64,000 nt of DNA from an uncultured Gammaproteobacteria bacterium (GTDB lineage: Bacteria > Patescibacteriota > Microgenomatia > Woykebacterales > RBG-16-39-9b), in assembly GCA_964367355.1 (NCBI GenBank), contig CAYIWY010000002.1, positions 7,296-71,295 of the forward strand. Reading direction: 5' to 3'. The translations under genes were made by a program, and so were the position numbers. Each line of letters starts with the position of its first letter. Positions within the stretch are counted from its first letter, which is position 1. The notes under the pieces are model-generated. The model had not been told where the DNA came from, searched no databases, and saw only the letters and a list, made by a program, of their open reading frames with translations. Positions 14,455 through 31,604 of the stretch are shown piece after piece.

Positions 14455-15087
14455 TTACTCAACTGGCTTATGTAAAACCTTAACCACAGTACCACTAATT
14501 AAGCTATCACTATGATCTTCAGGATGAATAAATATTGGAAGGAAGTCTTGTGATGAATCTGACAACAAAACAACCTGATTCTCATCTTTAAAGAATCTCT
14601 TTATATTTGCTAGATTATCAACAACAGCCACCACAACATCACCTTTTTCAGGACTTCGCTTAGAGCTGTCAACAACCACATAATCACCGTCTTTAATAGT
14701 AACACCCTCAACATTAGCCTTATCCATAGAAGAACCTGTTGCTCTTAAAGCGAAGAGTTTCAAATAATCAGTACCTGGTCGAAGAAGTTTTGAAGAAATT
14801 TTTAAGTAACCTTCAACTTCGTCATTAGCTAAATGAGTAGCTGGCCCGCAGTTTGCAGCGCCTAATATTGGAATTGTTATCAAGTCAGACTTACCAAGAA
14901 ATCTTTTTTCAACTCTGTTTACGCTCCTATTAAGTTTAAGTAAACCCTGTTTTTTGAGCTTAGCAATGTAATACTTGACTGTTTGAGGATTTTTGGTATC
15001 AACAAATCGAGCTATTTCTCGTAGCCTCATAGAAGACAGATTTTGCGATTTTGACAGATCAAGCAATTTTTGTTCAGTTTCGTTCAT
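14455..15087 (-). CDS. lexA: LexA-like S24 peptidase repressor
   Basis: N-terminal wHTH. ATGSSMDKAN (GSSM nucleophile Ser) and …NIKRF (Lys of the Ser-Lys dyad). 210 aa. Confidence 0.8.
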   Translation of the reverse strand: MNETEQKLLDLSKSQNLSSMRLREIARFVDTKNPQTVKYYIAKLKKQGLLKLNRSVNRVEKRFLGKSDLITIPILGAANCGPATHLANDEVEGYLKISSKLLRPGTDYLKLFALRATGSSMDKANVEGVTIKDGDYVVVDSSKRSPEKGDVVVAVVDNLANIKRFFKDENQVVLLSDSSQDFLPIFIHPEDHSDSLISGTVVKVLHKPVE

Positions 15088-15231
15088 TTACAAATGATAC
15101 CATAGAGTTGCGAAAACAACAAGTTTACATCAACTTACACATTTCTTAAATTAGCTATTGACAACTCTCAGAATAATCAAATATTATTAATTTATTATCA
15201 TTAGTTTATTAGATTGGAGGTGAACTTAAAA

Positions 15232-15540
15232 ATGGCAAGAAACTTTAACACTGATCGTTCAGGAAACTCGTTTTCTGTAGCAACTAAAATACTAGTTTGG
15301 ATCAAGGGTGAGACAAACTCTGAATATGACCCTAAGTACTTTAGGAGAGATGCTTGCGGAGCTTTAATTGAATGGGTACAGTACGGATCAACCACCATAC
15401 ACGGCTGGGAGATTGACCACATTAGAACAGTAGCGAACCACGGTGGAGATGAATTATCAAATCTCCAACCCCTACAGTGGGAGAATAATCGAACTAAAGG
15501 TGATTCAACAAGTTTGAATTACTGCAAAGTACGAGAATAA
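15232..15540 (+). CDS. HNH endonuclease (small, about 102 aa)
   Basis: GGAGG SD, then the ATG at 15232. EIDHIRTVANHGGDELSNLQPLQWENNRTKGD is an HNH motif. Divergent from lexA. Confidence 0.8.
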   Translation: MARNFNTDRSGNSFSVATKILVWIKGETNSEYDPKYFRRDACGALIEWVQYGSTTIHGWEIDHIRTVANHGGDELSNLQPLQWENNRTKGDSTSLNYCKVRE

Positions 15541-15569
15541 CCCACAAACAAGTGGCGCTGCCCACCACT

Positions 15570-16175
15570 TTAAATTTCCAAAACCCTCACCGAATTATCT
15601 TCAACCCAAACAGCTTGGTCGTCAGTGAGAGTTTTTAATTTAAACTTGTCCTTGTAATCGTCAATGATTTTTTGATACCGAGACAGATACTTTTCCTTAC
15701 CGTAGTGGGGGAGGATGACAAAATCGACTAGTCCTAGACCTTTGGTATTTTCTAGCTTTGCTTTTGATGGATCGTCCAGATCGTTGACTGGCGCGATATC
15801 CGGACCAGCTAATGTTGCTCCGGCACTTGCACCCACGTAAATCACACCGCTATCGAGCAAATTGCCGATAATTTTATCAAACCCAGATTCTCGGACTTTT
15901 TCTAGTAAATAAAATGTATTGCCGCCAGAGACAAAAATAATATCAAAAGACTTTAGAGCTTCGAAAAGCTTTTCTTCAGTTTGGTTTTTCAGATCAACCT
16001 CAGTAAATTTGAACCCCAGTTCTTTCAAATTTTTTCGATCAGCCTCAATGAACCATTTATCTTCGTAGGGATCCGCCGCTGTCGGAATATAGGCAAGTTT
16101 TAGTTCTTCTGGTTTTGCAGGAAGTTGACCAACCAATTTATCAATCCGCACCGAGGTAAGGTAAAGTTTTCTCAT
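15570..16175 (-). CDS. Peptidase S51 (dipeptidase E-like)
   Basis: FVSGGNTFYLL and YVGASAGATLAG (catalytic Ser motif). Confidence 0.75.
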   Translation of the reverse strand: MRKLYLTSVRIDKLVGQLPAKPEELKLAYIPTAADPYEDKWFIEADRKNLKELGFKFTEVDLKNQTEEKLFEALKSFDIIFVSGGNTFYLLEKVRESGFDKIIGNLLDSGVIYVGASAGATLAGPDIAPVNDLDDPSKAKLENTKGLGLVDFVILPHYGKEKYLSRYQKIIDDYKDKFKLKTLTDDQAVWVEDNSVRVLEI

Positions 16176-16268
16176 TGTTATATTCTAATCCTTTTGACAA
16201 ATCCTTGATCTAGCATTAAAATTCCCACAAACGTAGGGAAACCAAATTAAACGAGAAGGAGATTGGTC

Positions 16269-16757
16269 ATGAGCAAGGTTTCGATTGAAGGAGTAGATCA
16301 CCCGACTTTCTCCACAAGAGACAAACGGGAGATCAGTCGCCTGGCCACAAGGTTGGTCAGATATTGTCCAGGCGTGGTGTCGGTTGAAGTTACCACATCT
16401 CAAACAAGTGGAACCAGGAACTCTGTCTGCCTCGATTACAAAGTCATTTTCGATCTGGGTAAGGTTTTTGCACTGCCGGACAATTTGCCATTTTCTCGCA
16501 CAATCCGTTTCAGCAGTTCCGGGGAGTGGTCGATTATTCCGGACCGGTTCAGAGGCAAGAAAATGCCTAGTGTTCGACCGGATCAAGTGAAAGAAATCGA
16601 CCGTGTGAAAGGTTTGCTCAAAAGCTGGAAAGTTCAACGCGAATTACTCAGTTGGTACTTCGCCGACATCGGCTACTACTGTTTCAGTAGCGGGGGCATA
16701 AGTCTCTGCGGTTGGGAGAGACAACTAGAGCAACGCAAGAAAATAAAGGCTGCATAG
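16269..16757 (+). CDS. Hypothetical 162-aa protein
   Basis: AAGGAG at 16256-16261, then the ATG at 16269. GC about 50%. No motifs. The antisense ORF 16185..16637 was rejected. Confidence 0.45.
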   Translation: MSKVSIEGVDHPTFSTRDKREISRLATRLVRYCPGVVSVEVTTSQTSGTRNSVCLDYKVIFDLGKVFALPDNLPFSRTIRFSSSGEWSIIPDRFRGKKMPSVRPDQVKEIDRVKGLLKSWKVQRELLSWYFADIGYYCFSSGGISLCGWERQLEQRKKIKAA

Positions 16758-16829
16758 CAAACTAAAGTAAGGGGTGGGGCAGTGTTCTACTGGATCGACT
16801 ACTAAAGTAGAAACACTGGACCAAAAGCG

Positions 16830-17033
16830 GTGACAAACCGCCTTCTTGACAAATACGGACTCAGAGTTCTCAAGATCGTTCCCGCCTATTTCGACGAAAG
16901 TAGCGAACTGGTTGAAATTGACGGGGATCTTACAACCTACAAGTTCCCTGCCAATTGTGTTGTGGAAGTTTTTCTTGGAACAGCCGAACCAGAACCATTT
17001 GCTACCTACGTTGCCCAAGTAATAAAGGCCTGA
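16830..17033 (+). CDS. Small hypothetical protein (67 aa)
   Basis: GTG start. Followed by the terminator at 17040-17085. Weak. Confidence 0.3.
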   Translation: MTNRLLDKYGLRVLKIVPAYFDESSELVEIDGDLTTYKFPANCVVEVFLGTAEPEPFATYVAQVIKA

Positions 17034-17039
17034 CCCACA

Positions 17040-17086
17040 CGGCGAGGAAGTTTCGATAAAATCGAATCCTCGCCGCTTCTTTTTAC
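17040..17086 (+). terminator. Rho-independent terminator
   Basis: GGCGAGGA…TCCTCGCC, then GCTTCTTTTT. Followed by CATAGTGTATAAT (-10). Confidence 0.6.
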
Positions 17087-17137
17087 CACAAATTTCATCT
17101 CATAGTGTATAATATATTCCAGGAAAAGGAGTGACTA

Positions 17138-17626
17138 ATGTTAAGTCAGGGGCAGATTTTTCAGCTAGTGGTAAGTGGAAGAATGTTTTGTTGGGCTGGT
17201 CAAGGTGATCGCCACAGCATTGAACCAACGATTCCCGGAGCAAAGCGTTTTAGACTTGAAACAAACTACAACGGAATTCCAGCAAGTTACGAAGACCAGT
17301 ACCTGGGAGAAAACGCTTTTTTTGGATCCGAACTAGTTCGGGTTGGGGATGAAAACGAAGCCGTCTGGGGAATGAATTACAACGGCTACTTGATGGATGA
17401 AGTCGAGAAAGTTGAACAATTCCTCAAGTCCATCCTTCGTACCGAAGCAAACCGTATCCGGTTTGGCGAAGACGTCCATATAACCCAAAAAGACTTGACT
17501 TATTCAAGTCGCACTGTCCGTCGGGTAAATAATCTGCATTTTACCCAAATTGAAACCATAAAGAGGGCTGGGGTAGAGTTTTACTCTGCAACACTCTCAG
17601 CCGGATCGATCATGACTCTTCCATGA
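17138..17626 (+). CDS. Hypothetical 162-aa protein
   Basis: AAAGGAG SD plus ATG. GC elevated. Confidence 0.5.
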   Translation: MLSQGQIFQLVVSGRMFCWAGQGDRHSIEPTIPGAKRFRLETNYNGIPASYEDQYLGENAFFGSELVRVGDENEAVWGMNYNGYLMDEVEKVEQFLKSILRTEANRIRFGEDVHITQKDLTYSSRTVRRVNNLHFTQIETIKRAGVEFYSATLSAGSIMTLP

Positions 17627-17646
17627 TAGATTTAGTCCGAATTTTC

Positions 17647-17687
17647 GGCGGGATCTGTGAAACTTCACACTCCCGCCGTTTCTTTTT
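17647..17687 (+). terminator. Terminator element GGCGGGATCTGTGAAACTTCACACTCCCGCC-GTTTCTTTTT (copy 1)
   Basis: Long hairpin with an internal TGTGAA-N2-TTCACA palindrome, then a T-run. Near-identical to 18258-18301. Confidence 0.65.
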
Positions 17688-17763
17688 GATAACTATCCCA
17701 TAGTGACAATTTGTGCTATAATACATGCAATTAACTTGTTCAATCCTGAAAAGGAGAAGAAAC

Positions 17764-18246
17764 GTGAGAGCGATACGAACCCTTCGAGATATGTTCGAAG
17801 ACCAATCGGAAATTTTCGAAAAGGTAAAGAAACTTTTCCCAATGGTCGATTGGAAAACAGTCGAACTAAATGGGGATGACATTCAGGATCTGTTGGCTAA
17901 ACTTCGCTGCGGTGCTTACGGAGATGAGGATCTTCTGAACGCATCAATCGAAGATTATGGTGGCATAGATCAAATAGTCGATGAGTTGTTTGAGATTCAT
18001 AAGCGCGATGGTCTTGGAACCGATAATCCTTTGCTCGCATTGAGTCGAGCTGTTGATTTCACGAAAGCAGTGATCCTTGCTGTGGCGGATATAACTCTCG
18101 AAATTGCAGAAAGCGAACCACCAGAAGAAGTAAAACTTCTGCTTGACCAGATTAGGGCTAAAGCCGCCGGTCAGCCAGTAACCCGCCCAACAATTGACCG
18201 TTTTCGTGGTGTCCCAAGGACACAAGATGGCCAGATAATCAACTAG
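17764..18246 (+). CDS. Hypothetical 160-aa acidic protein
   Basis: Extended -10 TGCTATAAT (17724-17732). AAGGAG SD, then a GTG start at 17764. Confidence 0.5.
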   Translation: MRAIRTLRDMFEDQSEIFEKVKKLFPMVDWKTVELNGDDIQDLLAKLRCGAYGDEDLLNASIEDYGGIDQIVDELFEIHKRDGLGTDNPLLALSRAVDFTKAVILAVADITLEIAESEPPEEVKLLLDQIRAKAAGQPVTRPTIDRFRGVPRTQDGQIIN

Positions 18247-18257
18247 AGTGGCACAAA

Positions 18258-18301
18258 CGCGGTGGGATTTGTGAAATTTCACACTCCCGCCGTTTCTTTT
18301 T
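18258..18301 (+). terminator. Terminator element GCGGTGGGATTTGTGAAATTTCACACTCCCGCCG-TTTCTTTTT (copy 2)
   Basis: Same architecture and almost the same sequence as 17647-17687. Confidence 0.65.
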
Positions 18302-18390
18302 GACAACTCCTCAAACCAATCTAAATCTCCTATATCTTATAGTCTCTGTGGTATAATATTTTCCAACAAACGAGCTACTTTAGCCAACTG

Positions 18391-18428
18391 GGAGTTGTTC
18401 CATCTCGATGGCAACTCCCGATTTTTTT
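18391..18428 (+). promoter_or_regulatory. Intrinsic-terminator-like hairpin inside a 5' leader (candidate attenuator)
   Basis: GGGAGTTG…CAACTCCC plus GATTTTTTT. It lies between the TGGTATAAT -10 (about 18347) and the SD/start at 18468/18481. Confidence 0.4.
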
Positions 18429-18480
18429 GGTCATAAAACTTGTTTTGTGTGGTAAAATCATTTCTAAAAGGAGGGGACCA

Positions 18481-18900
18481 GTGACCCATGCAGTGAACCA
18501 CCTGCAGGATCAGGAAAGAGTCGAGTTCGACGACCAAACCGTTCGGCGTGTCTTTGACTGTTTCCGGGATTATTCACTTTCCAGTTTGCTACTGTTGCTT
18601 CAAAAACGCCGTGGGGGACTGGGAATAGTAAGCCTTCAAGAAAAGATCAACCCGATTTATCAAAAGAGAGGCCTGTGGCCAGTTGATGAGAAATTCCTAA
18701 CCGATAAGCTTAGGGTTCTTGTCGAACTTGGATTGGTTGGCGTAAATCCAGCCCAAAACACCTATCGACTCAGTCCGATTGGAAAGCTGTTAGTCGAGCA
18801 CTTACTAATAACCGGTCGGAAAATGGAGCAGAAGCGCCGAGAGTTTGACGAGATATGTAATGCACATGGACAAATTCAGCTAGGGTCGTACGGGGACTGA
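18481..18900 (+). CDS. Hypothetical protein, possible winged-helix DNA-binding fold
   Basis: AAGGAGG SD, then GTG at 18481 (or ATG at 18487). …KLRVLVELGLVGVNPAQNTYRLSPIGKLLVEHL resembles a wHTH recognition helix and wing. Tentative. Confidence 0.4.
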   Translation: MTHAVNHLQDQERVEFDDQTVRRVFDCFRDYSLSSLLLLLQKRRGGLGIVSLQEKINPIYQKRGLWPVDEKFLTDKLRVLVELGLVGVNPAQNTYRLSPIGKLLVEHLLITGRKMEQKRREFDEICNAHGQIQLGSYGD

Positions 18901-19069
18901 TCACACCTAATACCGCTTCAACGAAGTTTACTGCAAAGATCTTCCACTAACCTGGAAGGTCTTTCTTTTTGACAAACAAGCCCTATAACAAGTAATGTAG
19001 CAACTAAACCAAACTTGTTGTATAATCACGAATAACTAAAAGTGGATAGATCTAGGTAAGGAGATTGAA

Positions 19070-19546
19070 ATGACCGACAAAACCCTCGATGTCCAGCTGG
19101 AGGATGCCACTCAGAAAATTCTATATTCGGAAATTAAAGAGTTGGCCGCCAACTCAACCATCGACCCGCTGCGTAAGTACCAATTCGCCCAAACGTACTC
19201 AAGGAGTGAGAATCAGGAGAATTGGTTACTAATGGGCATTGTTGCCGCTTTTGTTTTCCTAGTAATAGCGCTTGGTATCGGAATTACCTGGGCCGGATTC
19301 AATGACCTGCACAACCAATTTGGAGTTACCCCTGGCAACTCCCGAGCCGGCACTGAACTATTAGTTGGCATGCTCTTTATCTTTTTCGGTTCAGGGGTTT
19401 GTTGGTGGTTTCTGGCTTTTGCTGCAAACGCGTCGGCTCGAAAAATGGTTATCAGGGCACGTTTTGAGGAAACTCAAAAACCCAAAAGCTCTGAACAAAC
19501 CGAGATGCCAAACCAGACACCTGCAGCAGAACCCGGTAAGGAGTGA
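19070..19546 (+). CDS. Membrane protein (2 TM)
   Basis: AAGGAG SD plus ATG. TM helices LLMGIVAAFVFLVIALGIGI and LLVGMLFIFFGSGVCWWFLAF. Confidence 0.5.
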   Translation: MTDKTLDVQLEDATQKILYSEIKELAANSTIDPLRKYQFAQTYSRSENQENWLLMGIVAAFVFLVIALGIGITWAGFNDLHNQFGVTPGNSRAGTELLVGMLFIFFGSGVCWWFLAFAANASARKMVIRARFEETQKPKSSEQTEMPNQTPAAEPGKE

Positions 19547-19547
19547 G

Positions 19548-19887
19548 CATGGAAGATCTGGACCAGGAAAAGGGAACCCTGGATTACATGTGGGAACTGC
19601 TCGCCATGCCACTAGAAGGAATGCATGATTTAGTCGGCAAAGCTTGGGCAATATTTTACCTAATGGTTGCCTTTGTTTTGATTGGCGGATTGGTAAACAA
19701 AATACCGAGTGTCGAAATAAGCCGAGTGATCAATTTCGTTGCTCTTGTCGTCCTGGTTGGTTGTTTGGGAGTGGCAATCAAGACAAGCCCCAACCTAAGT
19801 AAGTGGTGGACATTTCCGGGACGAGCAGAATTGCTTGGAATTATGTCTGGTATTGGTCTGTCTGGATTCCTTTTGACCACAATCTAA
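19548..19887 (+). CDS. Membrane protein (3 TM)
   Basis: The ATG at 19548 overlaps the preceding TGA. An AAGGAG SD lies in the upstream gene. Confidence 0.5.
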
Positions 19888-19949
19888 GGCCACTGGAACA
19901 AACTGTGCGATCTTTCTTATCTAAAGAATGGGAGTTGGACAAAAATAAA

Positions 19950-19986
19950 AGAGCAAATCATCAGATTTGCTCTTTCATCTTTTTTC
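19950..19986. terminator. Bidirectional terminator
   Basis: AGAGCAAATC…GATTTGCTCT with an A-run 5' and a T-run 3'. Lies between convergent genes. Confidence 0.6.
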
Positions 19987-20066
19987 AGTTCCCATTTTTT
20001 TTAGTCTTCCTAGACGCAGAGCGCGAAGCGATCTTAGATTTCCTAATCGCAGGACGCTTTAGGGGA

Positions 20067-21717: not shown

Positions 21718-21776
21718 AAACTTGAAGGGCGTCTACAAAATTGTAGCCGTCCTTATGTTTGAAAGGGGAGTTAACA

Positions 21777-22016
21777 ATGATGTTTTTCTCGATGCGCTTC
21801 TGGACAGAAGAAGCAATCATTTTAGTGATTTCCTTAGTAGTGGCGCTGGGACTGCACTTTGTTGGTCTTGAAGGTTTCTTTAAAAGCTGGCCTTTGTTTC
21901 TTGGCAGTTTGTTGATCGTCTTGAGGATGATCGTAGTCGAAACGAGAGATAAAACAGTCGGTCTTGTCTGTGTCTTCTTGTTGATGATTCTAGGCTTGGG
22001 CGGAACCATCAACTAG
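21777..22016 (+). CDS. Small membrane protein (about 79 aa)
   Basis: AAGGGGAG SD, then ATG. Two hydrophobic helices. The terminator at 22030-22066 follows. Confidence 0.35.
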   Translation: MMFFSMRFWTEEAIILVISLVVALGLHFVGLEGFFKSWPLFLGSLLIVLRMIVVETRDKTVGLVCVFLLMILGLGGTIN

Positions 22017-22029
22017 GAAAGCAACCCAA

Positions 22030-22066
22030 AAAAGCGTCCCCCTTGCAAGGAGACGCTTCTTTTTTA
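22030..22066. terminator. Terminator hairpin (A-run/T-run flanked)
   Basis: AGCGTCCCC…GGAGACGCT followed by TCTTTTTT. Confidence 0.55.
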
Positions 22067-22235
22067 CCTAATCCAAACAACATTTTAACGATCCTGGAAT
22101 CGAAAAACGAATTTTAAACCTGAGTATTAAGTTGTTCAATAGTTGTAAATTTGAATTGTAGAGAAATTAATTCTTTTTCGTAGTTTATAGAGGATTAGCT
22201 AAATAATTTTACCAATCTTCTGTTAAGTAAAATAA

Positions 22236-22270
22236 AGGCTGTGGTTTACAAAGACTACAGCCTTTTTTTT
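22236..22270 (+). terminator. Rho-independent terminator inside the gene-free tract
   Basis: GGCTGT…ACAGCC followed by TTTTTTTT. No annotated gene precedes it. Confidence 0.5.
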
Positions 22271-23943
22271 CGGACTCTACTGAGAAAGTGCCTCTTCAAG
22301 AGTCGTTGACATCATTTAGATGGTCAAGCGAATCAATCTTGTCCAAAGTTAGAATTGGAACACTCCGACACTTTTACCTCCATCCTCACTTGTAACTAAG
22401 CCGATAATATCAAAATAAGTACTTAAAGCCCATCGATCAAAGCTAAAAGGTGGTTTTTATATCTGAAAGATAGCTTTTATATTGATATATCAGCCTATTT
22501 TGGTAATTATAGGTTCAATTTTAGGAAAAGCAGAGAAGTGGCTAAATTGGCTAAATTTCTTGTTTTGCTTGATATATCAACCATTTTGGTCAATTTAAGC
22601 GCAAACAAATTTTTAAAGAAAAATCGACATGGTAAAAGTAGAGAATTTTGTAAAATCCTTTTGGGTAAAGTTTGAGAACAATACAGCAGAGAAGAGACCC
22701 GAAAAAAATTTAATAATAATCTACCGGAGAAGAGCGTGGTCTGACGTCGTATAAGATACATTGTGCGACGTAATAACAATTGAGGCTGGGCCTAGGAAGA
22801 GACCTCTGAGGAGGGGTCTGAGTAGCTCCAACAATAGAACAATTAACCAATCGGTCTCCGTGCTCCGAAAGTTACAGCACTAAACTTATTACTTACACCT
22901 ATAAAACAGTTTGTAGAGCCTTGCAGCGGCTCGTATTTACCAGGCATAAGGAGGTTCTAACCTGTAGGTCTGGTTTACGAGCAGTAAAGTCGTGGCGGTG
23001 GGTGTCAAAATTGCTTGTTTAATCAATCTATTTTTAATATTTTTAGCCTGAAAATTGATTGATTTAGCCTCGAAATTAGCACTCCCTTTTGGGTTTTGCA
23101 ATAGTTATCCACAATTTAGACCTAGGACTAAGTGAAAAGAGTGCGACAAAAAAAATTAAAGTCTAGGTTTTGCCAAAAGAGAAGAGTGGAGTCACAAACT
23201 TTTTCTGACTTCTTAACAGCACCGAAGAGTCTTTCGGTTTTCTTTCGCTCTCTCCCACCAATTAATGTCGGCCCTATAGTTATCTTTCCACACGTGGAAA
23301 CAACTATATCATACTACATCACTTATACCTTATAGTAAGTTAGTCTTTGCGTTATAAGACTACAACCTCTCCTCTACTTCCCTAACTACCTAAAAAAAAT
23401 CTCCGTTTGTCTTCGTTTAATATTTTTTTATTCGGAATATACTTTGCTCGAAGAAAAGGTTTGTAAAATACTTTCTTTCTGAAAACTTGAACTTGTTCCC
23501 ACTACCTTTCGAAAAAAAGTGCCCAAGTTACCCGAAAGTATCTTGGACACTTCAATTGAAAACTACCGCCTGAACACTACCCCAGCAAGAGCAGGATTCA
23601 GCTTCCTTGGCAAACTCTGCGTTGATGTCGACGTCTTCTGCTTCTCCTTTTCCGCCGAACACCAAATACAAAGATGCCCGTTTGTTGTCATCTTTGCGTT
23701 ACCCGTATCGACCACATGCGGTTTCTTGTCGCTTCCGGGAAACCCGTAACAGTTGACTTTGCCCATGAGGTTTGAGATCCTTCTACTCCAATTCGCAAGC
23801 CTTGCGAGACCTTCCTTGATCGAGTGTTTTAGGTGACTTCAAAAAAAAATCGCTTCTCTACTTCACACACACCTCCCTTTAGTAAACTCTTCCTCTAGGA
23901 AAGATTATATATTTGAAAACACTACCAGTCAACTTTTCGGCAG

Positions 23944-24720
23944 TTAGATACCCCAATTTGTGGTTACAAAAAGTAAAAAGAAGACGCTAAAACCAACAAA
24001 AATGTATTCAATTGCCGCTCTTTTGGTTAGGTCTTTTTTGATCATGTGCTGCATAATTCCAAGTAATACATAAACCAAAGCTGTCATCGCAAGTCCAATT
24101 TTTGGCGGATCAAGTGGCCAAAACGAAAGTCCGGCTGCTAACTGCCCTACCAAAAACCCAGCAGCCAATGAATTAATTACCAGTTCCCGACTAAAAGTCT
24201 CCTCTAGCTCGATCTGCCAAAGTGCTTGGGAAAAAAGCAAACTACCGACAATAAAAGCGATAATACTCAAAAACCACCACGGAAACCCTAAACCAAACAG
24301 GAGTGAGAAAAATGAAAAAGCAACGAATAAAGTCACTAAATAGCCGACCGTTCTTGCAGCTCTAAGTAATGGTATATTCCGCTCAGCGGAGACATTGAAA
24401 ATATTTTCTGCTAAAAGGTTTGTGTAAAGTACAGTTCCATAAACGATCGATAAAAGTAAACGAACCTCAGTAATCGGCTTGTATTGGTTGATAAATAAAC
24501 CAAAACTTAAAGTCAAAAGGGTCGGTAAAACGAATAAAGTGATAAACTCAAAACCCTCTAAATCCTGATAAATTGACCACACGGAGAGCAAGTAGCTTCC
24601 CAGTACAAGAGCGGAAAGAAAATAAATTTTGAGTCGATCATCTACAAATGGGAAGGTAAAAAGAGAAATTGTCAATAGAGTCGTAGTAATCGAGATCTTT
24701 ACACGTTTAGTTAAAAACAT
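23944..24720 (-). CDS. Polytopic integral membrane protein (7-8 TM), unknown function
   Basis: Hydrophobic throughout. Probable start at MFLTKR (24720), 8 nt downstream of the ruvC stop. Confidence 0.55.
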   Translation of the reverse strand: MFLTKRVKISITTTLLTISLFTFPFVDDRLKIYFLSALVLGSYLLSVWSIYQDLEGFEFITLFVLPTLLTLSFGLFINQYKPITEVRLLLSIVYGTVLYTNLLAENIFNVSAERNIPLLRAARTVGYLVTLFVAFSFFSLLFGLGFPWWFLSIIAFIVGSLLFSQALWQIELEETFSRELVINSLAAGFLVGQLAAGLSFWPLDPPKIGLAMTALVYVLLGIMQHMIKKDLTKRAAIEYIFVGFSVFFLLFVTTNWGI

Positions 24721-24728
24721 ATCTGGTT

Positions 24729-25253
24729 TTAAGTCTGTTGGGATTTTAGCACATGGCACATAGCTAAAGCTATGGCGTCGTAGGCATCATCACGAAATCG
24801 AAAAATTTCTTTACCAGCTTGGCTTTTAGGTATTGGTAACTCTTTAAGTTTCAACAGTTTCAAAACTCCTTCTTGAACTTGTTGTTTATCGGCTCGTCCA
24901 TGACCTCCAACCATGAGTTTCATTGTCAAACCAGTATAACCAACGATCGGTACATGTTTTTCGGCAGCTGCCAAATAAATTGCTCCAATCGCCTGCCCGA
25001 CTGCAATCGCAGTTCGAGAATTTACGCCGAAAAATATCTGCTCAACTGACATTATCTCTGGTTTATAGTCAACAAGAAGTTTGGTGATACCCTCTTTTAT
25101 AGACAACAAACGGTACTGAATCTCCCGTTCTTTGTCAGTCAAAATACAACCAAATTGTCGAATAGCAAATTTTGTTTTCCCGTTGGTGCCCTCTGCATTG
25201 AGAACTCCCCAACCGGTTGTAGCAGTTCCTGGATCAATTCCAAGGATTAACAT
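24729..25253 (-). CDS. ruvC: Crossover junction endodeoxyribonuclease RuvC
   Basis: MLILGIDPGTATTGWGV… (catalytic Asp7). 174 aa, a typical RuvC profile. Confidence 0.9.
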   Translation of the reverse strand: MLILGIDPGTATTGWGVLNAEGTNGKTKFAIRQFGCILTDKEREIQYRLLSIKEGITKLLVDYKPEIMSVEQIFFGVNSRTAIAVGQAIGAIYLAAAEKHVPIVGYTGLTMKLMVGGHGRADKQQVQEGVLKLLKLKELPIPKSQAGKEIFRFRDDAYDAIALAMCHVLKSQQT

Positions 25254-25265
25254 AAATTAGATTAA

Positions 25266-25577
25266 TTAAATGTGGTCAAAGTCGCCTTTTTGGCGCCGTG
25301 TGTCGATGTGTTCTAAAACTTTTGGGTATTCTTTATCTAAGTCTATACCATAGATTGCCGCAATACAAAAAAGTGAGTAAAGGCTGTCACAAACAGAATC
25401 GATTAACTCTGATTTTGACCGCTTCTGCGATTTCCAACCTTCTTCGACTTGAATCGCGTTCGCGAGTTCTCCGACTTCTTCAACAAGATCGGTTAACCGC
25501 TGGTAAATTTCCCATTTTTTGCCAGGCATTTGGTCGGAAACTTCTTTTGTTTTCTTAACTGCTTCGTTTAAATTCAT
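25266..25577 (-). CDS. MazG-like nucleotide pyrophosphohydrolase (small all-alpha NTP-PPase)
   Basis: LVEEVGELANAI…SELIDSVCDSLYSL fits the EExxE/D metal-binding helix pattern of the MazG/HisE superfamily. Confidence 0.65.
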   Translation of the reverse strand: MNLNEAVKKTKEVSDQMPGKKWEIYQRLTDLVEEVGELANAIQVEEGWKSQKRSKSELIDSVCDSLYSLFCIAAIYGIDLDKEYPKVLEHIDTRRQKGDFDHI

Positions 25578-26323
25578 AAGGCCACTTTCTCCAGCATCTC
25601 GCTCGGAATGTCAAAATTAGCGTAAACTTTTTGGACGTCGTCGGAATCTTCGAGTTTTTCAAGCAAACTTAATACACTTTTGGCCTTCGACTCGTCAGTA
25701 ATTTTTATAGTGTTTGTAGCTTCCTTAATAACCTGCGCACTAGTTATTTCGTAACCAGCAGTAGAAATTGCTTCTTTAACTTTTACTAAATCATCGCTCC
25801 TGCAGAAAACAGTTGACTCTCCTTCATGTGATTCAATATCCTCTGCCCCACTATCAGCTGCTAGCAGGAAAAGTTCGTCTGGGTCTTTCCCGGAAATGTT
25901 AACTGAAATTGCCCCAATAGATTTAAAGTTATAAGCAACACTTCCAAGACCGGCGAGGTGTCCACCACTTTTATCGAGTAAACTACGAATGTCCGCGGCT
26001 GTCCGCATTTTGTTATCCGTGACCACTTCAATTAATAACGCTACACCAGAGGGTCCATAACCCTCGTAAACAGCTTCTTCGAGCGGTTTTGAACCTTCCC
26101 CTCCGATTGCTCTGGCAATCGCGCGCTCGATGTTGTCTTTTGGCATGTTAATCGACCGCGCGGCTTCAACAGCTAAACGTAGTTTGAAATTGGTATCAGG
26201 GCTCGCCCCATCACGAGCGGCAATAGTGATTAACTTGGACGCTTTAGTAAACGCTTGGCCACGTTTAGCATCGTTAGCCCCTTTTGCTCGTTTAATTGTC
26301 GACCACTTGCTATGACCGGACAT
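25574..26323 (-). CDS. yebC: YebC/PmpR family DNA-binding transcriptional regulator
   Basis: MSGHSKWSTIKRAKGANDAKRGQAFTK… is a canonical N-terminus. Classic yebC-ruvC linkage. Confidence 0.9.
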   Translation of the reverse strand: MSGHSKWSTIKRAKGANDAKRGQAFTKASKLITIAARDGASPDTNFKLRLAVEAARSINMPKDNIERAIARAIGGEGSKPLEEAVYEGYGPSGVALLIEVVTDNKMRTAADIRSLLDKSGGHLAGLGSVAYNFKSIGAISVNISGKDPDELFLLAADSGAEDIESHEGESTVFCRSDDLVKVKEAISTAGYEITSAQVIKEATNTIKITDESKAKSVLSLLEKLEDSDDVQKVYANFDIPSEMLEKVAL

Positions 26324-26342
26324 AAAATAACCTTTCTTGTGG

Positions 26343-26480
26343 TCGACTACGGAGCGCGAAGCGATCCATAGTACTCCACTTAGAATGTCCTGACATTTTT
26401 ATTTACTTTCCCTTGACCATTTTAGCCCACGCAGTGGTCGCAAAGCGCGAAGCGATTTACTATGACCTGACATATCTTAA
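26343..26480. repeat. Two tandem copies of a roughly 45-nt repeat (…GAGCGCGAAGCGATCCATAGTACTCC…ATGTCCTGACAT… and …AAGCGCGAAGCGATTTACTATGACCTGACAT…)
   Basis: Direct comparison of 26343-26400 with 26430-26477. A partial third copy, ATGTCCTGAC, lies at 26489-26498. The core GAGCGCGAAGCGATC is also found at 20019-20033. Confidence 0.6.
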
Positions 26481-26665
26481 TTATCCTTTCAGTTGTAATG
26501 TCCTGACTTTTGCGTCAGCAAATGCAGCGTTTCTTAACGCACCATAATTGGCAATATTTTAACACATGCTAAACTCCAACAGTATTCGCCAAAATGCGAA
26601 GGCCGAAGACGAAGTCAAGGACTTGACAGGTAGTTTATAAATACTCTGTAATAAACTAGTTACTT

Positions 26666-27517
26666 ATGTCACAATCAGAACTCGATCCACGAAATCAAGA
26701 ATCAATTCAAGCTGCTTTGGAAGGAGCTTGGGAAAAAGCTGTCGAACTAAATATTCTCTTGTCTGAAGAATTCCCCGAAGACCTTGAAATCTTAAATCGC
26801 CTTGGCAAGGCCTACAGCGAACTCGGGCAAGTAAATAAAGCCAAAGCTACTTTTGAAAAAGTTTTGGAAAGCGATCCCTACAACCCAATCGCCACAAAGA
26901 ACCTTGAAAGACTTTCGACCTTACGCGGCTCGACGATCAAGCTTAAAGAACAAGCTACAAAACCACTTAATCCGGACATATTTATTGAAGAGCCAGGAAA
27001 AACAAAAACGATCTCTGTTACAGATTTGGCAATGCCAAAAGTATTGATCCACCTGCGGGTTGGAGACAGTGTGAAACTAAATACAACAAAAGATGCAACT
27101 GCCGTGATTTCAGAGGACAATCATCGCCTGGGAAAATTGGAACCGATTATTGGCCAGGATGTTTCACAAGCCTTTGCACTTGGAAGTGAGTTCTCAGCTA
27201 TAGTAAAAGCCATCAAAGTCGGAAAGGATGAAAAAAACTCTAGCTTGACAGTTTTCGTCCGTGAAACTAAACATAGTACTAAACTCGCCCACCCTGTTTT
27301 CACGTTTGAAAGTAATTTTACCCCTTTTGTTAGCGAAGAAACCATTTCTTATCTAAAGGATGAAGAACCTCTAAAAAGTGATGCTTCTGATGAAACCAGC
27401 GAAATTGAGGGCGAAGACATACCTTTAGATGATCATGGGGAACAAAATCACGAAGAAGAGACCAATCATCCGAAGATGGATCCAATTGAAGACGAAGAAG
27501 ATTTTTCCCCAAAATGA
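26666..27517 (+). CDS. TPR-repeat protein with acidic C-terminal tail
   Basis: N-terminal TPR-like helices (LGKAYSELGQVNKAKATFEKVLESDPYNPIA). The C-terminus is very D/E-rich. Confidence 0.55.
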   Translation: MSQSELDPRNQESIQAALEGAWEKAVELNILLSEEFPEDLEILNRLGKAYSELGQVNKAKATFEKVLESDPYNPIATKNLERLSTLRGSTIKLKEQATKPLNPDIFIEEPGKTKTISVTDLAMPKVLIHLRVGDSVKLNTTKDATAVISEDNHRLGKLEPIIGQDVSQAFALGSEFSAIVKAIKVGKDEKNSSLTVFVRETKHSTKLAHPVFTFESNFTPFVSEETISYLKDEEPLKSDASDETSEIEGEDIPLDDHGEQNHEEETNHPKMDPIEDEEDFSPK

Positions 27518-27563
27518 AACTCTTTGAGCTTCGTTTTACTTCGTAAAATAAATTCCCAAAAAT

Positions 27564-28520
27564 TTAAGTTAGTTCGTCCTCTTCCGGACTAATCTCAATC
27601 GGAGCGGGTTTTGCTACAGATGCAGGTTGAACCACAGGTTTGGCAACCTCTTCTACTTTCGGTTCTGGTTCAATCGTAATTGCTTTCAGAGGCTCTGGTT
27701 TTATAACAACGGTTTCTTTTGCGGGTGGTTTAACTTCTGGTTGTTTTTCTACTTTCGCAACGCGAATGGAGTCATCTACATTTGCGGAGCGAATGGGTTC
27801 TGATATTTTCGGTGCCGGTTTTGGCGCCTCAACTTTTGGAGCTACTTTTGGAGCTTCCATCTTTTTTTCCTCCACTTTTTTCTCTTCAACTTTTTTTGGC
27901 TCCTCTTTCTTTTCTGTTGGTGCTTCTGTAACTTTAGCTTCTTTGACAACTGCTTTTTCTACTTTCTTCTCAGCCTCTTCTAATACTGGCTGTGGTTTTT
28001 CACTATCGGCTTCAAAACTTTTTTCTACCTTACCCTTAACCGACTCGATTGCCCCATAGGGAACAGTTAAGTTGTTTGCCGGTAGATGCAAAGTCACCTC
28101 ATTTCCAACATCAGCGCCAAAATGAGCTACAGCTGATGGTAAAACTTTATAAGAACCCTCTGGAGTGACCACCTTCCATTTACCATCCTTCTTAGTTAAG
28201 ATTCCCGTTGTCTTATGACGCTTTACATGTTCGATTTGCTTAAAACGTTTTTCCTTGCCTTCGTCAACAAGTTTTAGGCTGTCGCCAACAACCAACATAC
28301 TTTTACTAGCATAGTTTGCTGGCACCGGAAAGGTCTGGCCGTTCTCAGAGGCCATATTTTCACCATCAAAAATTCCGGCAATACCAGGAAGCTCAACCGC
28401 TTTTGGTTTAGCGATTACCCCAGAATCCACAAGATCGTTTAATAATTGTTTGGCCAGCTTTATACTACTCTCGGCTGCCCCTAGTGCTTGTCTGATTAAC
28501 TCAAGATTACTTTGATTCAT
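27564..28520 (-). CDS. Hypothetical protein with K/P/E/V-rich repetitive C-terminal half
   Basis: AGGAGG SD. The N-terminal ~190 aa is globular, followed by (EKKVEE/APKV/KPEP)n low complexity. Downstream of the T4CP-like gene. Confidence 0.5.
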   Translation of the reverse strand: MNQSNLELIRQALGAAESSIKLAKQLLNDLVDSGVIAKPKAVELPGIAGIFDGENMASENGQTFPVPANYASKSMLVVGDSLKLVDEGKEKRFKQIEHVKRHKTTGILTKKDGKWKVVTPEGSYKVLPSAVAHFGADVGNEVTLHLPANNLTVPYGAIESVKGKVEKSFEADSEKPQPVLEEAEKKVEKAVVKEAKVTEAPTEKKEEPKKVEEKKVEEKKMEAPKVAPKVEAPKPAPKISEPIRSANVDDSIRVAKVEKQPEVKPPAKETVVIKPEPLKAITIEPEPKVEEVAKPVVQPASVAKPAPIEISPEEDELT

Positions 28521-28538
28521 TTGTTTTTTCCTCCTTTA

Positions 28539-28625
28539 ATTATATCGTTAAGAAACTCTAAATTGCTCCATTATATCGTTAGGAAACTCATAATTTCATA
28601 ATTAGACTCAGGTATAATTGCTCCA
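28539..28625. repeat. Direct repeats in the promoter region (TTATATCGTTARGAAACTC x2; ATTGCTCCATTATA x2)
   Basis: Copies at 28539-28557 and 28571-28589, and at 28561-28575 and 28611-28625. Confidence 0.5.
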
Positions 28626-28631
28626 TTATAA

Positions 28632-31604
28632 TTACTTAAGATCATTTTGGGTTGGTGGAAAGCGAAATATTTCCACTTCTCCGGATGACTGCCCATCTTG
28701 CTCGACTTTAGGACTTTGATTTTGCGCTGTTGACTGGGAATTCTGATCCCCTACTTCGTTTACTCTCGGTTGATTTTGCAGCTGTGGCAAATCTTGATTT
28801 ATTTGTGTCATATTTGATTCCAAATCCTTCAAAAATTGGTTTGAATCAACTTCCTCTGAAAAAACTGGTTTTTCTGGTAAACCTTCTACTGTCTCTGGTT
28901 TTGAAATAACTTGTTGCGGTGATACCTGTTGTACAGGGTTAACTGGTTGCTCAATATTTTGCTTTTGCAGTCCCTGAGACAGCGGTAAAGTGGTTTCTTC
29001 AGGCTGACTTACCACTTCTGCAAGTAGATCAGCTAATGGTGAGTCCTCGGGGCTAATAGGGGTTGATTGAACAACAATCGCTGGTTGAGATCCTTCAATT
29101 GGTTGTTGGGCATCTATTACAGCCGCTGAAACAGCTGCTTGTGCAGCAGCTTTGGCCTCATCGATTGCCCATTGTGGCGGCAACGGTGGTTGACCAAGAC
29201 GGAATTTTGTTTCGGTCCATTTTTTTATTAATTTTTCGATTTTTTCCAGCTCTCGAGAGTATTTTTGACGAGAAAGTGAAATTGCTCGTTGAGAAAGATT
29301 TGTCGGATCCTTATAAGGTGCTAAGGAAATGGCTGAAAATGGTTGTGAAGACATATCGTCGATTTGTAGTTTTATATACATTTCAAACCTACCTAAATTA
29401 ATAAAATCATTTTCCAAAAATGTTGGTGAGTATTCTCTCTCCAAAAAGTGGGCATCCTGATTGCCAACCGCAAAACTTATCATCGTCCCAACGTTACCGA
29501 AAATTGCATCCCTGACAGCTTCCGGCATTTGTTCAATATATTGGTGCGTAACAATTAAATCGAGTCGGTATTTCCTCGCTTCAGAAAGAATCACCGCAAA
29601 AGAATCGGTGGCAAAGTTTTGAAACTCGTCAGCGTAAAGGAAAAAGTCGCTGCGTTGCTCTTCAGGAATATCAACCCGCCGCATAGCGGCAAATTGAAGT
29701 TGAGAAACAATCATCGCTCCAAGCAAAGAGGTGTTGTTGGCGCCGATACGACCGGAAGCAAGGTTAACAAAGAAAATCTTTTTCTGATTAATAATCTCAT
29801 CAATTTTAATACTTGATTTCGGCTGACCAACAATATTTCTGATTAATTCACTATTCAAAAATTGACCGACTTTATTTTGAATTGGGGCAATTGCTTCGGT
29901 AATCAAACGATCATTAGTTTCCATCTTGGCAAACTCTTCATTCCAATATTTTTTCATTTGCGGATCGGAAATTAAATTAACAATGTATTTTCGATAGTCA
30001 CGATCAACTAGCATACGAATAACTGAAAGTAAGGAGGTGTTGGGAACTTCAAGCAGTGTCAGAATACAATTTTTTAAAATATACTCAAGTCTTGGTCCCC
30101 AGCTCTCGGCGAAATATTTTTTGAAAACATCGACCAGAGTATCACCGATCAAAGTCCGTTGTCTTGGATCGACTAGCTCTAACATATTTAAAGCAACTGG
30201 GTATTGTGCGTCGGCCGGGTTGAAGATAACAACATCATCAAGTCGGTTTTCCGGCACAAACTCCAAAAGTTCATCGATCAACTGACCGTGCGGGTCAAGA
30301 ACAGCAACACCCTCACCGTTGCGCATATCCTGAATTATCATATTACTTATCAAAGTTGATTTCCCGACTCCAGTTTTACCGATCATATACATATGCTTGC
30401 GTCGATCCGGTCTCTTAATACCAAATTTAATTTCTTGATCACGGAAATAAGTTTTACCCATATAAGTGACGTTTTCTGTTGGTAAGTTAAGTGGTGGTTC
30501 GCTCTTTTTGGAGCGAGTCCAGGCAATGGTTGGGGTTTCGACTGACATATTCGGCAAATGGAAAATTGAGGCAAGCTCTTCGATATCCAATATGTAGTCC
30601 CCTGCTTCACCCTCAGGAAAGAGTCGGCTCTGGTAACTTTTTAACAAAGTAGCTGTTGTCGGACTATCAGGATCTTCCTCAAAACTGTTTAAAGAAGCAG
30701 TTGAGAATTGTTTGAAAGAAGCAACGGCGCTAGCCAAGCGCTGTTGTGCAGCTTCAGCAGAGTTACCAATAGAAATTACTCTTATTTTTGTCTCAAAACC
30801 TATCTTCGAAAGTTTATTCTCGATCATTTTCAAATCGAGTTCTTTTCCGGCAGAAAGTTTTGGCAGCTGTGGGGGTCCTACTCTGGGTGCTACAACCTCA
30901 GCAGGTCCGCGGGCAATATAAGGAAAAATATTTCCACCCACCGACATGATGTGTTTTCCAACATCAATCATAATTTGTGAGGCATTCAATGTAACCGGCT
31001 CTTGACCCTCACGGACCATCTGAACATACTCGTGACCACGTTCTTGCCAAAAATCATCTACCGGGCGCACCAAAATCTGAGCCCAAAGCTGCTCGCCATT
31101 ACGGACGCTACTTAAGGCACTAGTAACCGCTGCCAGTGGATCGACCTCAAAATCCCGAAAAGTTTTGATCGGAAGAATAAAATCTTTTGACAAAACTATT
31201 TCCGTACCGCTAACAACTGCTGAGGCACCAACACTTTTTGAATAATCGACTGCTTCACGAATTTCCGCAGTCGGATACTGCGCATAAATTTGACTTTCAA
31301 CGAAACTTTTGAATTGTCTAGGGGTAAAAACGTAAAAGCCGAGCCCTTCAGCTGAGCTGGCCATTTCCAGTGAGACATGCTCTTGAATTCCGGGGGTAAA
31401 CTTCAGTAAACCATGAAGCGAGGCAAACATTTGCTCGGCCGCGATCGGAAGTTTTTCGTTTTCACGCGGCAAACGAATGGAAAGTAGAACTCCCTCTTTG
31501 ATATCTGATTTTTTCGACTTGCCGGCTTCCTGCTGCAATGCGCTTCTATAAGCAAAAAAGAAGGCTACAAGAACGATTATTCCTAAAATTATGATTAAAG
31601 GCAT
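28632..31604 (-). CDS. Type IV coupling-protein-like ATPase (VirD4/TraG/TraD family), 990 aa, with N-terminal TM and Q/P-rich C-terminal tail
   Basis: N-terminal TM helix. Walker A MIGKTGVGKST. DPHGQ. Walker B FFLYADEFQNF (the DEF pattern typical of TraG/VirD4). The C-terminal ~200 aa is Q/P/S-rich low complexity. Confidence 0.7.
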   Translation of the reverse strand: MPLIIILGIIVLVAFFFAYRSALQQEAGKSKKSDIKEGVLLSIRLPRENEKLPIAAEQMFASLHGLLKFTPGIQEHVSLEMASSAEGLGFYVFTPRQFKSFVESQIYAQYPTAEIREAVDYSKSVGASAVVSGTEIVLSKDFILPIKTFRDFEVDPLAAVTSALSSVRNGEQLWAQILVRPVDDFWQERGHEYVQMVREGQEPVTLNASQIMIDVGKHIMSVGGNIFPYIARGPAEVVAPRVGPPQLPKLSAGKELDLKMIENKLSKIGFETKIRVISIGNSAEAAQQRLASAVASFKQFSTASLNSFEEDPDSPTTATLLKSYQSRLFPEGEAGDYILDIEELASIFHLPNMSVETPTIAWTRSKKSEPPLNLPTENVTYMGKTYFRDQEIKFGIKRPDRRKHMYMIGKTGVGKSTLISNMIIQDMRNGEGVAVLDPHGQLIDELLEFVPENRLDDVVIFNPADAQYPVALNMLELVDPRQRTLIGDTLVDVFKKYFAESWGPRLEYILKNCILTLLEVPNTSLLSVIRMLVDRDYRKYIVNLISDPQMKKYWNEEFAKMETNDRLITEAIAPIQNKVGQFLNSELIRNIVGQPKSSIKIDEIINQKKIFFVNLASGRIGANNTSLLGAMIVSQLQFAAMRRVDIPEEQRSDFFLYADEFQNFATDSFAVILSEARKYRLDLIVTHQYIEQMPEAVRDAIFGNVGTMISFAVGNQDAHFLEREYSPTFLENDFINLGRFEMYIKLQIDDMSSQPFSAISLAPYKDPTNLSQRAISLSRQKYSRELEKIEKLIKKWTETKFRLGQPPLPPQWAIDEAKAAAQAAVSAAVIDAQQPIEGSQPAIVVQSTPISPEDSPLADLLAEVVSQPEETTLPLSQGLQKQNIEQPVNPVQQVSPQQVISKPETVEGLPEKPVFSEEVDSNQFLKDLESNMTQINQDLPQLQNQPRVNEVGDQNSQSTAQNQSPKVEQDGQSSGEVEIFRFPPTQNDLK

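Follow-up and report, generated by a model that had tools for sequence, protein, structure and literature searches.

Several described systems bear on the locus presented here. The plasmid Xer sites cer and psi are flanked on one side by accessory DNA of about 160-180 bp, to which PepA binds together with ArgR or ArcA, and E. coli PepA is an accessory protein for Xer recombination at both of them. DnaA boxes also occur outside oriC, either in DnaA-regulated promoters or in box clusters such as datA, and we are aware of no report of such a box linked to dif. The Xer core site consists of two 11-bp half-sites and a 6-bp centre, and a dif site adjoining its recombinase gene is a known hallmark of the single-recombinase systems XerS and XerH (PMC5357621). 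Published surveys, in which the GC-skew pattern of a terminus has been used to validate dif sites, found flanks that are not conserved (Carnoy and Roten, PMC2731167). The present analysis concerns positions 22017-23943 of a 64-kb stretch of DNA (the window), a tract that a first-pass annotation, made from the letters alone, had singled out as gene-free. The tract is likely to be a dif locus at the probable replication terminus of a chromosome of the candidate phyla radiation (CPR)/Patescibacteria (Woykebacteria-like), one that has been enlarged by gene turnover.

As that annotation had stated, no open reading frame (ORF) of more than 90 aa is present on either strand of the tract, and the flanking genes converge on it. 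To the left is an 85-aa ORF (21759-22016, plus strand), and to the right is the gene of a DUF5656 (PF18900) membrane protein (23944-24720, minus strand), beyond which lie RuvC, a MazG-like 103-aa protein and YebC, in that order. TAA, TAG and TGA each recur often in every one of the six frames, which excludes a gene concealed by an alternative genetic code, and stop-codon recoding was ruled out as the cause of the empty tract. The tract is a composite, comprising a conserved non-coding block that carries dif, a small gene of 67 aa, and the remnant of another gene; the dif site, the 67-aa gene and the conserved linkage to DUF5656 and xer had all escaped the first-pass annotation.

The dif site and the probable terminus

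The call of a dif site at 22744-22771 is a strong one, based on a dif matrix and on conservation. Read on the minus strand, these positions spell ACGTCGCACAA-TGTATC-TTATACGACGT (ACGTCGCACAATGTATCTTATGCGACGT as a whole block), a near-palindromic 11-6-11 arrangement that falls within the dimensions of dif (a core of 28-31 bp, half-sites of about 11 bp and a centre of 6-8 bp) and whose arms differ at two positions in the window and at one in most relatives. With a position matrix made from the 40 proteobacterial dif 28-mers printed in Carnoy and Roten 2009 (PMC2731167), the site ranks first of 128,000 positions in the 64 kb, scoring 17.1 and 15.1 bits on the two strands, and the next unrelated match in the window reaches 7.2 bits. 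The score lies within the range of the training set itself (minimum 6.1, median 28.9).

Relatives of the locus were gathered by contig look-ups for close homologues, a scan of GTDB species genomes and a scan of Joint Genome Institute (JGI) metagenomes, giving 76 loci in all. Homologues of the DUF5656 protein number more than 200, and those that are named come from Candidatus Woykebacteria and from other Patescibacteria/CPR metagenome bins; the exact sequence of the window's own protein is without a database record. In every related locus of the window's dif type, the matrix selects the homologous site (11-23.6 bits); elsewhere in these loci nothing scores above 7.8 bits, save in L050 and L051, where a second site of 13.7 bits stands 87 nt upstream. 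Classical-looking matrix sites are also found downstream of DUF5656 in the distant loci L021/57/66 (ACTTCCGATAATGTTACTTATCTCAACT, 15 bits), L024 and L072/73. The 28-mer is single and intergenic within the window, occurs once per related locus apart from the pair just mentioned, is absent from viral contigs, and is the most conserved block of the element. A hairpin after the site shows no consistent fold.

Moderate evidence for a terminus comes from gene orientation and skew. Genes are mostly on the plus strand from 5.5 to 22 kb and mostly on the minus strand from 23.9 to 48.8 kb, and GC skew is weakly positive to the left and strongly negative to the right of about 23 kb, with its cumulative maximum near that position, as would be expected at a terminus.

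Xer recombinase genes adjoin the site in some relatives. About one third of the loci possess a different 11-6-11 palindrome, ATCGAGTATAA-TCACCA-TTACACTCGAT, at the same distance (+476 to +547) from the conserved palindrome that stands at 23285 in the window, and about 65 nt further on, on the same strand, is the gene of a 313-aa tyrosine recombinase. A third group (L027, L046 and L055) has the variant ATCGAGTATAA-TCCCTC-AAATGCTCGAT, followed by about 330 nt that include a TGATATATCAA block and then by xer, with the last conserved block about 85 nt upstream of the gene. The loci with an adjacent Xer-like gene comprise L013-L015, L028, L029, L033, L035, L037, L042, L043 and L054, as well as the three of the third group, and the recombinases next to the variant sites measure 311-314 aa. 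The 313-aa protein (L013/14/15 and others) matches Phage_integrase and Phage_int_SAM_1 of Pfam and, over its full length, the NCBIfam models for XerC (207 bits), XerD (201) and XerA (178), all below their trusted cut-offs. In the variant-site groups, the site is immediately preceded by a TTGACA-17/18-TAAnnT promoter, which places dif at the start of a predicted xer transcript and suggests that the recombinase may regulate its own expression. Since dif adjoins xer in these relatives, the ancestral layout would have been DUF5656, a promoter/palindrome module, about 0.5 kb of DNA, dif, and xer. In the window's clade, xer is gone from the locus and the non-coding DNA on both sides of dif has been kept.

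The conserved flanks and what they might do

A gene-free gap of 0.65-1.55 kb follows DUF5656 in nearly all of the 76 loci, and alignment to syntenic loci, a check that the first-pass annotation had proposed, found window positions 22462-23900 to be homologous to that gap (blastn and iterated nhmmer). In close relatives, gap identity is 72-86%, the level of the adjacent coding DNA. The most widely kept part is a conserved non-coding block, or core, of about 0.94 kb (22462-23400, minus strand), recovered by nhmmer in about 50 of the 76 loci, in one copy per locus, always directly downstream of DUF5656 and in constant orientation. It is present even in bins labelled WWE3 and Woesebacteria, where DUF5656 is only about 50% identical, and in many CPR lineages it has been passed on along with the DUF5656-RuvC-YebC genes that precede it.

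The core is non-coding and under purifying selection, and it is not a pseudogene. In the DUF5656 gene, substitutions show a strong codon periodicity (383/147/885 for the three positions), and those in the tract are flat over the codon phases in every 150-nt window; only 3-8 of the 29-49 core indels in each pairwise comparison are multiples of three. No ORF in the core is common to the relatives (about 50 loci), and tblastn with every stop-to-stop ORF of all loci returned only multi-frame, both-strand echoes of DNA homology, with no xer remnant in the tract. It is this lack of periodicity, of a shared ORF and of anything beyond DNA-level echoes that sets the core apart as selected non-coding DNA.

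In anatomy, the core consists of blocks of 8-28 nt, many of them palindromic, between variable spacers that bear indels, and the order of the blocks varies by lineage (the distance from the palindrome to the DnaA box ranges from +31 to +187, and the box may precede or follow AAAACCCGAA). Such an anatomy is typical of clustered protein-binding sites in DNA. One of the palindromes is the 16-bp TTTCCAC-NN-GTGGAAA at 23285-23300 (TTTCCAC-AC-GTGGAA in the window), which the first-pass annotation had correctly recognized as an inverted repeat near 23288. It is single in the window, present in nearly every locus and nearly invariant in about 50 of them; it varies mainly in its central two bases, and the changes in its left arm are all C to T. 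The palindrome is a candidate operator or protein-binding site, and its resemblance to parS, Noc and matS sites is, we presume, only superficial. Adjacent to it on the minus strand are tandem TGATRYAGT / TGATAYAnT motifs (TGATGTAGT-A-TGATATAGT, 23302-23321, alignment of 45 loci), of which the second varies like an extended -10 element (TGnTAyAnT) and may be read as a putative promoter.

The only perfect DnaA box in the tract is at 23105-23113 (plus strand), reading TTATCCACA on the plus strand and TGTGGATAA on the sense strand of DUF5656. Of 61 loci, 23 have a perfect sense-strand box in the first 1 kb downstream of DUF5656, as against 0.2 expected, with none antisense and none in the upstream control, and this single box is clearly selected. 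On the other side of dif, the sequence ACCAAAATnGnyTGATATATCAA occurs in two minus-strand copies (22568-22590 and 22481-22503), each of which holds the palindrome TTGATATATCAA. These copies correspond to the 27-nt imperfect direct repeat of the first-pass annotation, which is borne out at 22482-22508 and 22569-22595 with 78% identity and a spacing of 87 bp, and of which both copies are kept in relatives.

Searches for RNA structure gave little. With Rfam 15, neither the window nor any of 16 related loci gave a match at the gathering threshold, and only chance-level matches appeared at E up to 10; a tRNA/tmRNA scan of the window found only tRNA-Leu at 45441. RNAalifold on three alignments (42 sequences for the right-hand module, 22 for the middle, and 20 for the region after dif) returned only two 6-bp helices, both of which are DNA palindromes, with 0-1 pairs changed on both sides. 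Likewise, a sliding scan of seven close relatives by alifold, shuffle-z and structure-conservation index (SCI) was flat on both strands except at the palindromes and at the terminator that follows the 67-aa gene, the index staying at or below about 0.3 elsewhere. With neither a covariance-model match nor compensatory changes, the marks of a structured RNA, there is no conserved RNA fold in the core.

On these grounds, a mechanism may be proposed. One or more Xer recombinases, encoded elsewhere in the genome, would bind the two arms of dif, and strand exchange across the 6-bp centre would resolve chromosome dimers into monomers when the cell divides. The -10-like motif, the TTTCCAC-NN-GTGGAAA palindrome, the oriented DnaA box and the TTGATATATCAA palindromes would all be protein-binding DNA. 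The flanks would represent the ancestral promoter/operator and upstream region of a dif-xer module with a DnaA-responsive element, and might also serve recombination as accessory sequence, much as the flanks of cer and psi do; in the window, this flanking DNA would have persisted though xer left the locus. We infer that the role of the flanking conserved DNA is that of regulatory or accessory DNA, or else of an unstructured leader transcript.

A number of observations weigh against the reading of the tract as a dif locus at a terminus. No Xer gene is present among the 45 window ORFs tested (about two thirds of those of at least 90 aa), nor within 2-3 kb at any locus with the window's dif type, so the cognate recombinase is assumed. 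The terminus evidence is local, the far-side skew being weak in the window; in the relatives, upstream skew exceeds downstream skew in 15 of 16 loci, and downstream skew is negative in only 4 of the 16. Polar oligomers resembling the FtsK-orienting KOPS gave no clear signal in the 64 kb, where gene orientation confounds the test. The left arm of the palindrome, in which every change is C to T, and the stem at 22913-22933, which varies, hint at a transcript, although they are weak hints and not evidence of structured RNA. Finally, published dif flanks are variable (PMC2731167), so a conserved flank of about 0.9 kb is not explained by dif alone.

A bolder reading, which is doubtful, is that CPR of the Woykebacteria, WWE3 and Woesebacteria carry a dif "super-site", in which about 0.9 kb of conserved DNA with an oriented DnaA box, the 16-bp palindrome and the TTGATATATCAA palindromes would provide functional flanks or a long transcript. 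The site would in that case be physically tied to DUF5656, RuvC, YebC and an FtsK/HerA-superfamily ATPase, and the flanks would couple Xer recombination to replication status via DnaA, or would replace activation of the FtsK type.

Of the rival explanations, the one that survives best, though it too is rather unlikely, is that transcription of the block yields a long RNA with little structure, either an ancestral 5' leader of xer or a non-coding RNA (ncRNA) of about 0.4-1 kb running from the extended -10-like motif at about 23302-23310 (minus strand) through dif, and that the conserved blocks act at the RNA level or via transcription across dif. Such an RNA would fit the second TGATAYAnT motif, which varies like a -10 hexamer, as well as the left arm of the palindrome, whose C-to-T changes would give G-U pairs if the minus strand were RNA and are in one case (L058) compensated. 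It would also fit the block CGAGCCGCTGCAAGGCTCTAC at 22913-22933 (also written CGAGCCGCTGTAAGGC; minus strand, about 45 loci aligned), a short hairpin with a conserved GCTGTAA loop, a stem that varies by eye (GCC/GGC, GGC/GCC, GCCC/GGGC and GAGC/GCTC), and a conserved T-run after it at about 22902-22906; RNAalifold does not call this stem. In addition, the other dif types place dif within the predicted xer leader, downstream of the TTGACA-17/18-TAAnnT promoter. However, the motif at 23302-23310 lacks a -35 element, no consensus structure extends beyond the palindromes, and no gene follows the block in this genome. The order of the blocks, with the DnaA box before or after AAAACCCGAA, also differs between lineages, and independent DNA sites fit such variation better than does one folded RNA.

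It is very improbable that the tract encodes one or more structured ncRNAs, be it one large molecule like OLE, GOLLD or ROOL or a set of small RNAs. A long conserved non-coding block with several hairpins speaks for this idea, which the first-pass annotation had put forward, but the proposal found no support in Rfam or in the folding of the three alignments, where essentially no compensatory pairs accompany the palindromes, and the scan of seven relatives was equally flat. The hairpins that had been singled out are either DNA palindromes or unconserved; a GNRA hairpin at 22858-22880, for example, is present in the window and is not kept by relatives. This rival has largely been refuted already.

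Decayed DNA, in the form either of pseudogenes or of what is left of a prophage or mobile element that had integrated at the terminus, is most unlikely to account for the tract. The remnant of a gene of about 100 aa and its terminator (22234-22364) speak for decay, as does the gene content beside the block, which differs even between close relatives. The idea of a degraded gene set does hold for the left 150 bp, where the remnant explains the left-hand terminator, and fails for the core at 22462-23400, which is not decayed: about 50 loci keep it without an ORF, and its conservation equals that of the neighbouring coding DNA. The tblastn search for gene remnants divides in the same way, with a hit at 22308-22364 and only DNA-level echoes in the core. 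The suggestion of a decayed mobile element is not supported: the core is kept across several CPR lineages and its motifs have no match in 2.9 million viral contigs; the absence of such matches also led to the rejection of a viral origin and of one in an integrative mobile element exploiting Xer (IMEX).

The proposition that the block serves replication, whether as oriC or as an origin of the DnaA-titrating or iteron type, draws on the perfect, conserved and oriented DnaA box, on AT-rich stretches and on direct repeats 87 bp apart, yet it can be set aside as hardly credible, since the box is single, relaxed boxes number 4 in the tract against a background of 3.6 and are not clustered, the genes converge, the skew changes sign in the terminus direction, and no dnaA, dnaN or rep was found among the same 45 ORFs, so that oriC is ruled out.

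The rest of the tract and the neighbouring genes

Further conserved blocks lie within the core. On the minus strand, these include a nearly invariant purine block, AGTAGAGGAG (23369-23378, at least 45 loci), the block ACTATAGGG (23272-23280), invariant in the cross-locus alignment, and the conserved ACAAGCAA (23011-23018). The two TTTAGCCT repeats that the first-pass annotation listed at 23041-23080 are indeed present; read on the minus strand as AGGCTAAA, they show moderate conservation. The minus-strand block GAGTGCTAA (23076-23084) is single in the window and, in some relatives, forms the right arm of GCACTC-N7-GAGTGC. At 23221-23246, the block AAAAAACCCGAA (GAAAGAAAACCGAA in the window; about 23232-23246) is accompanied by a hairpin, and its sequence is kept in at least 40 loci. 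On the plus strand, this region resembles a terminator, with a hairpin and then a T-run (-7.1 kcal/mol in the window, with a weak z of -1.0); as a universal plus-strand terminator it was rejected, the hairpin being present in only 19 of 40 loci.

The conserved region after dif (22462-22743) contains CT-rich blocks, is kept in loci with this dif type, includes the minus-strand block GCTCTTCTCCGG (22724-22735), and is 93-100% identical to L001. The CT-rich blocks were considered as FtsK-orienting motifs and dropped; their orientation is right to the left of dif and wrong for two blocks to the right. A long-range pairing of AGTAGAGGAG with TTCTCTACT (about 22640) was likewise abandoned; the two are complementary in the window, and inspection by eye found only wobble changes and a mismatch in relatives, with no compensation.

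Identity to L001 is a mosaic. It is 93-100% around and after dif (22549-22788) and in the DUF5656 region (23734-24450), and falls to 53-58% in the spacer at 23384-23503 and to only 50% at third codon positions of YebC, which suggests recent recombination or very strong constraint around dif. The variable, AT-rich spacer proper (23400-23507) is poorly alignable, and its 53-58% identity to L001 is like that of neutral third codon positions. Locus L005 (contig logan:SRR24524427_24) ends within the conserved block, 1051 nt after DUF5656, and such assembly breaks might reflect strain variation at the terminus.

To the right of the spacer lies a small protein gene of 67 aa (MGKVNCYGFPGS...CIWC..., 23563-23766, minus strand), so the tract is not wholly gene-free, as had been supposed. 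Intact orthologues of 67-68 aa are present in L001, L002 and L004, with indels in frame; differences by codon position (for example 30/23/43) are most frequent at third positions; and a ribosome-binding site, AGAAGGA, stands 9 nt upstream and is AGAAGGA or AGAGGGA across the orthologues. A sigma-70-type promoter (TTGACT-17-TATAAT, 23904-23932, minus strand, 11 of 12 consensus matches) directly follows the stop codon of DUF5656, in a region 95-98% identical to L001, and probably drives this gene. Its intrinsic terminator (about 23508-23547, minus strand) has a 12-bp outer stem with a 4-bp capping helix and U7 (-22.6 kcal/mol, z -3.4), and is the only strongly conserved fold in the right-hand tract, being kept in 7 relatives. 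The protein database holds one identical 67-aa protein and one 76% relative. The ORF is a small, fast-evolving, clade-specific gene, for which support is moderate because there are only four orthologues.

The left-hand part of the tract (22017-22462) is variable. It begins with the terminator of the 85-aa gene (22028-22062), which by hairpin prediction is also bidirectional. An orphan terminator had been reported at 22236-22270 and taken to imply a small transcript at roughly 22070-22270. A hairpin with a T-run does exist, at 22234-22265, in the form of a bidirectional intrinsic terminator (A-run, 14-bp stem and T-run; -20.3 kcal/mol, z -5.9). It is not an orphan: window positions 22229-22315 align with the end and terminator of a gene of about 100 aa in L001 (13232-13313), and a minus-strand remnant of that gene, intact in L001, L002 and L004, persists at 22308-22364 (tblastn, 15-19 aa, 53-67% identity, E about 1e-4). 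The terminator is therefore the leftover of a lost gene, and no small RNA is implied.

Beyond the tract, a string of genes ends at dif both in the window (23944-31604) and in L001-L007, and consists of a 990-aa ATPase, a protein of about 300 aa, a tetratricopeptide repeat (TPR) protein, YebC, the 103-aa protein, RuvC and DUF5656. The membrane-anchored ATPase (28632-31604) combines DUF8128 with TrwB_AAD_bind/DUF87, belongs to the FtsK/HerA superfamily, and has weak matches to TraD/CedD; it could be a DNA translocase that serves dif in these organisms. The order DUF5656-DnaA box-dif persists in L021, L024, L057 and L065-L073, where DUF5656 is 28-44% identical and one bin is labelled Saccharibacteria, which suggests that the DUF5656 protein may have a functional link with the terminus or with dimer resolution. 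The protein's AlphaFold model is a confident all-helical membrane protein of about 10 helices (mean predicted confidence, pLDDT, 86), and has no significant relative in the PDB.

Other genes of the window stand further from the site. A PepA-family aminopeptidase (Peptidase_M17) is encoded at 39158-40588 (minus strand), 17 kb from dif, and its presence is probably coincidental. A 297-aa ORF at 11496-12389 (plus strand) retains only the C-terminal MgsA_C and AAA_assoc_2 domains of MgsA/RarA, the homologue in L007 measuring 425 aa; 46837-48189 (minus strand) encodes the DnaB helicase; and 5870-8326 (plus strand) is probably ClpB, judging from its length of 818 aa and an annotated ClpB-like neighbour in L002. 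The interval 13750-20000 contains mostly short hypothetical ORFs without a Pfam match, together with a LexA-like S24 peptidase (14455-15087), a weak HNH match (15214-15540) and DUF5680 (17138-17626). At 16185-17018 within it, ORFs without a family match overlap on both strands and GC content is higher (0.45). Here there may be an island close to the terminus, or else a region in which genes were mis-called.

Comparison with known systems

A literature search found no description of dif/Xer loci or of large non-coding elements in CPR/Patescibacteria, and none on DUF5656. The locus should be of practical use as a ready marker of the terminus in uncultured CPR with small genomes, where it would aid assembly checks and estimates of replication rate, and the linkage of DUF5656 to dif offers a first functional lead for a family of uncharacterised membrane proteins. 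The flank is conserved even between lineages in which identity of the neighbouring protein has fallen to about 50%. Functional flanks could shed light on the control of dimer resolution in minimal cells; if the flanks are only the promoter/operator of a relocated xer, the result is an ordinary but useful annotation.

Two of the conserved blocks recall known binding sites. Compared with DnaA boxes outside oriC, the window's box is perfect (TTATCCACA) and conserved in orientation, but it is single and next to dif, and does not form a cluster like datA. The CIRCE operator bound by HrcA reads TTAGCACTC-N9-GAGTGCTAA. The window's GAGTGCTAA is identical to its right arm, but the left arm is absent, no chaperone gene is nearby, and the GCACTC-N7-GAGTGC of relatives is mostly spaced by 7 and not by 9; with zero matches at up to three mismatches, a CIRCE/HrcA operator was rejected.

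Among Xer sites, the closest precedent for a core with long conserved flanks would be provided by cer and psi, and the window also encodes a PepA-family gene. In contrast to these plasmid sites, the site here is chromosomal, conservation reaches out for about 630 bp in one direction and 280 bp in the other, and protein binding to the flanks is only putative. The XerS/difSL system of streptococci and lactococci and the XerH/difH system of Helicobacter and Campylobacter find a parallel in the CPR relatives, which likewise possess an Xer-like gene about 65-400 nt from an 11-6-11 site. The window locus itself, however, is without an adjacent xer, and its site is of the classical kind and is neither difSL (which has an 11-bp centre) nor difH. 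Unlike XerS, moreover, the related CPR recombinase of 313 aa is closest to the XerC, XerD and XerA models.

The nearest relative in form is the classical XerC/XerD dif, which in E. coli reads GGTGCGCATAA-TGTATA-TTATGTTAAAT. Both sites have 28 bp in an 11-6-11 arrangement with partial dyad symmetry, and they match in the inner ends of the arms (..CAA and TTAT..) and in the TGTAT of the centre. Like classical sites, that of the window is intergenic, single in the window and placed at a switch of skew and gene orientation, with a matrix score in the known range. It differs from them in arms that are almost identical to each other (ACGTCGCACAA and ACGTCG[C/T]ATAA), in the GC-rich ACGTCG of the outer arm, and in the conservation of about 0.9 kb of flank. 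Taken together, the architecture and sequence of the 28-bp core identify it as a predicted member of the known dif family, and what is new relative to known dif sites is the conserved flank of about 0.9 kb, the oriented DnaA box, and the synteny with DUF5656, RuvC and YebC across CPR lineages.

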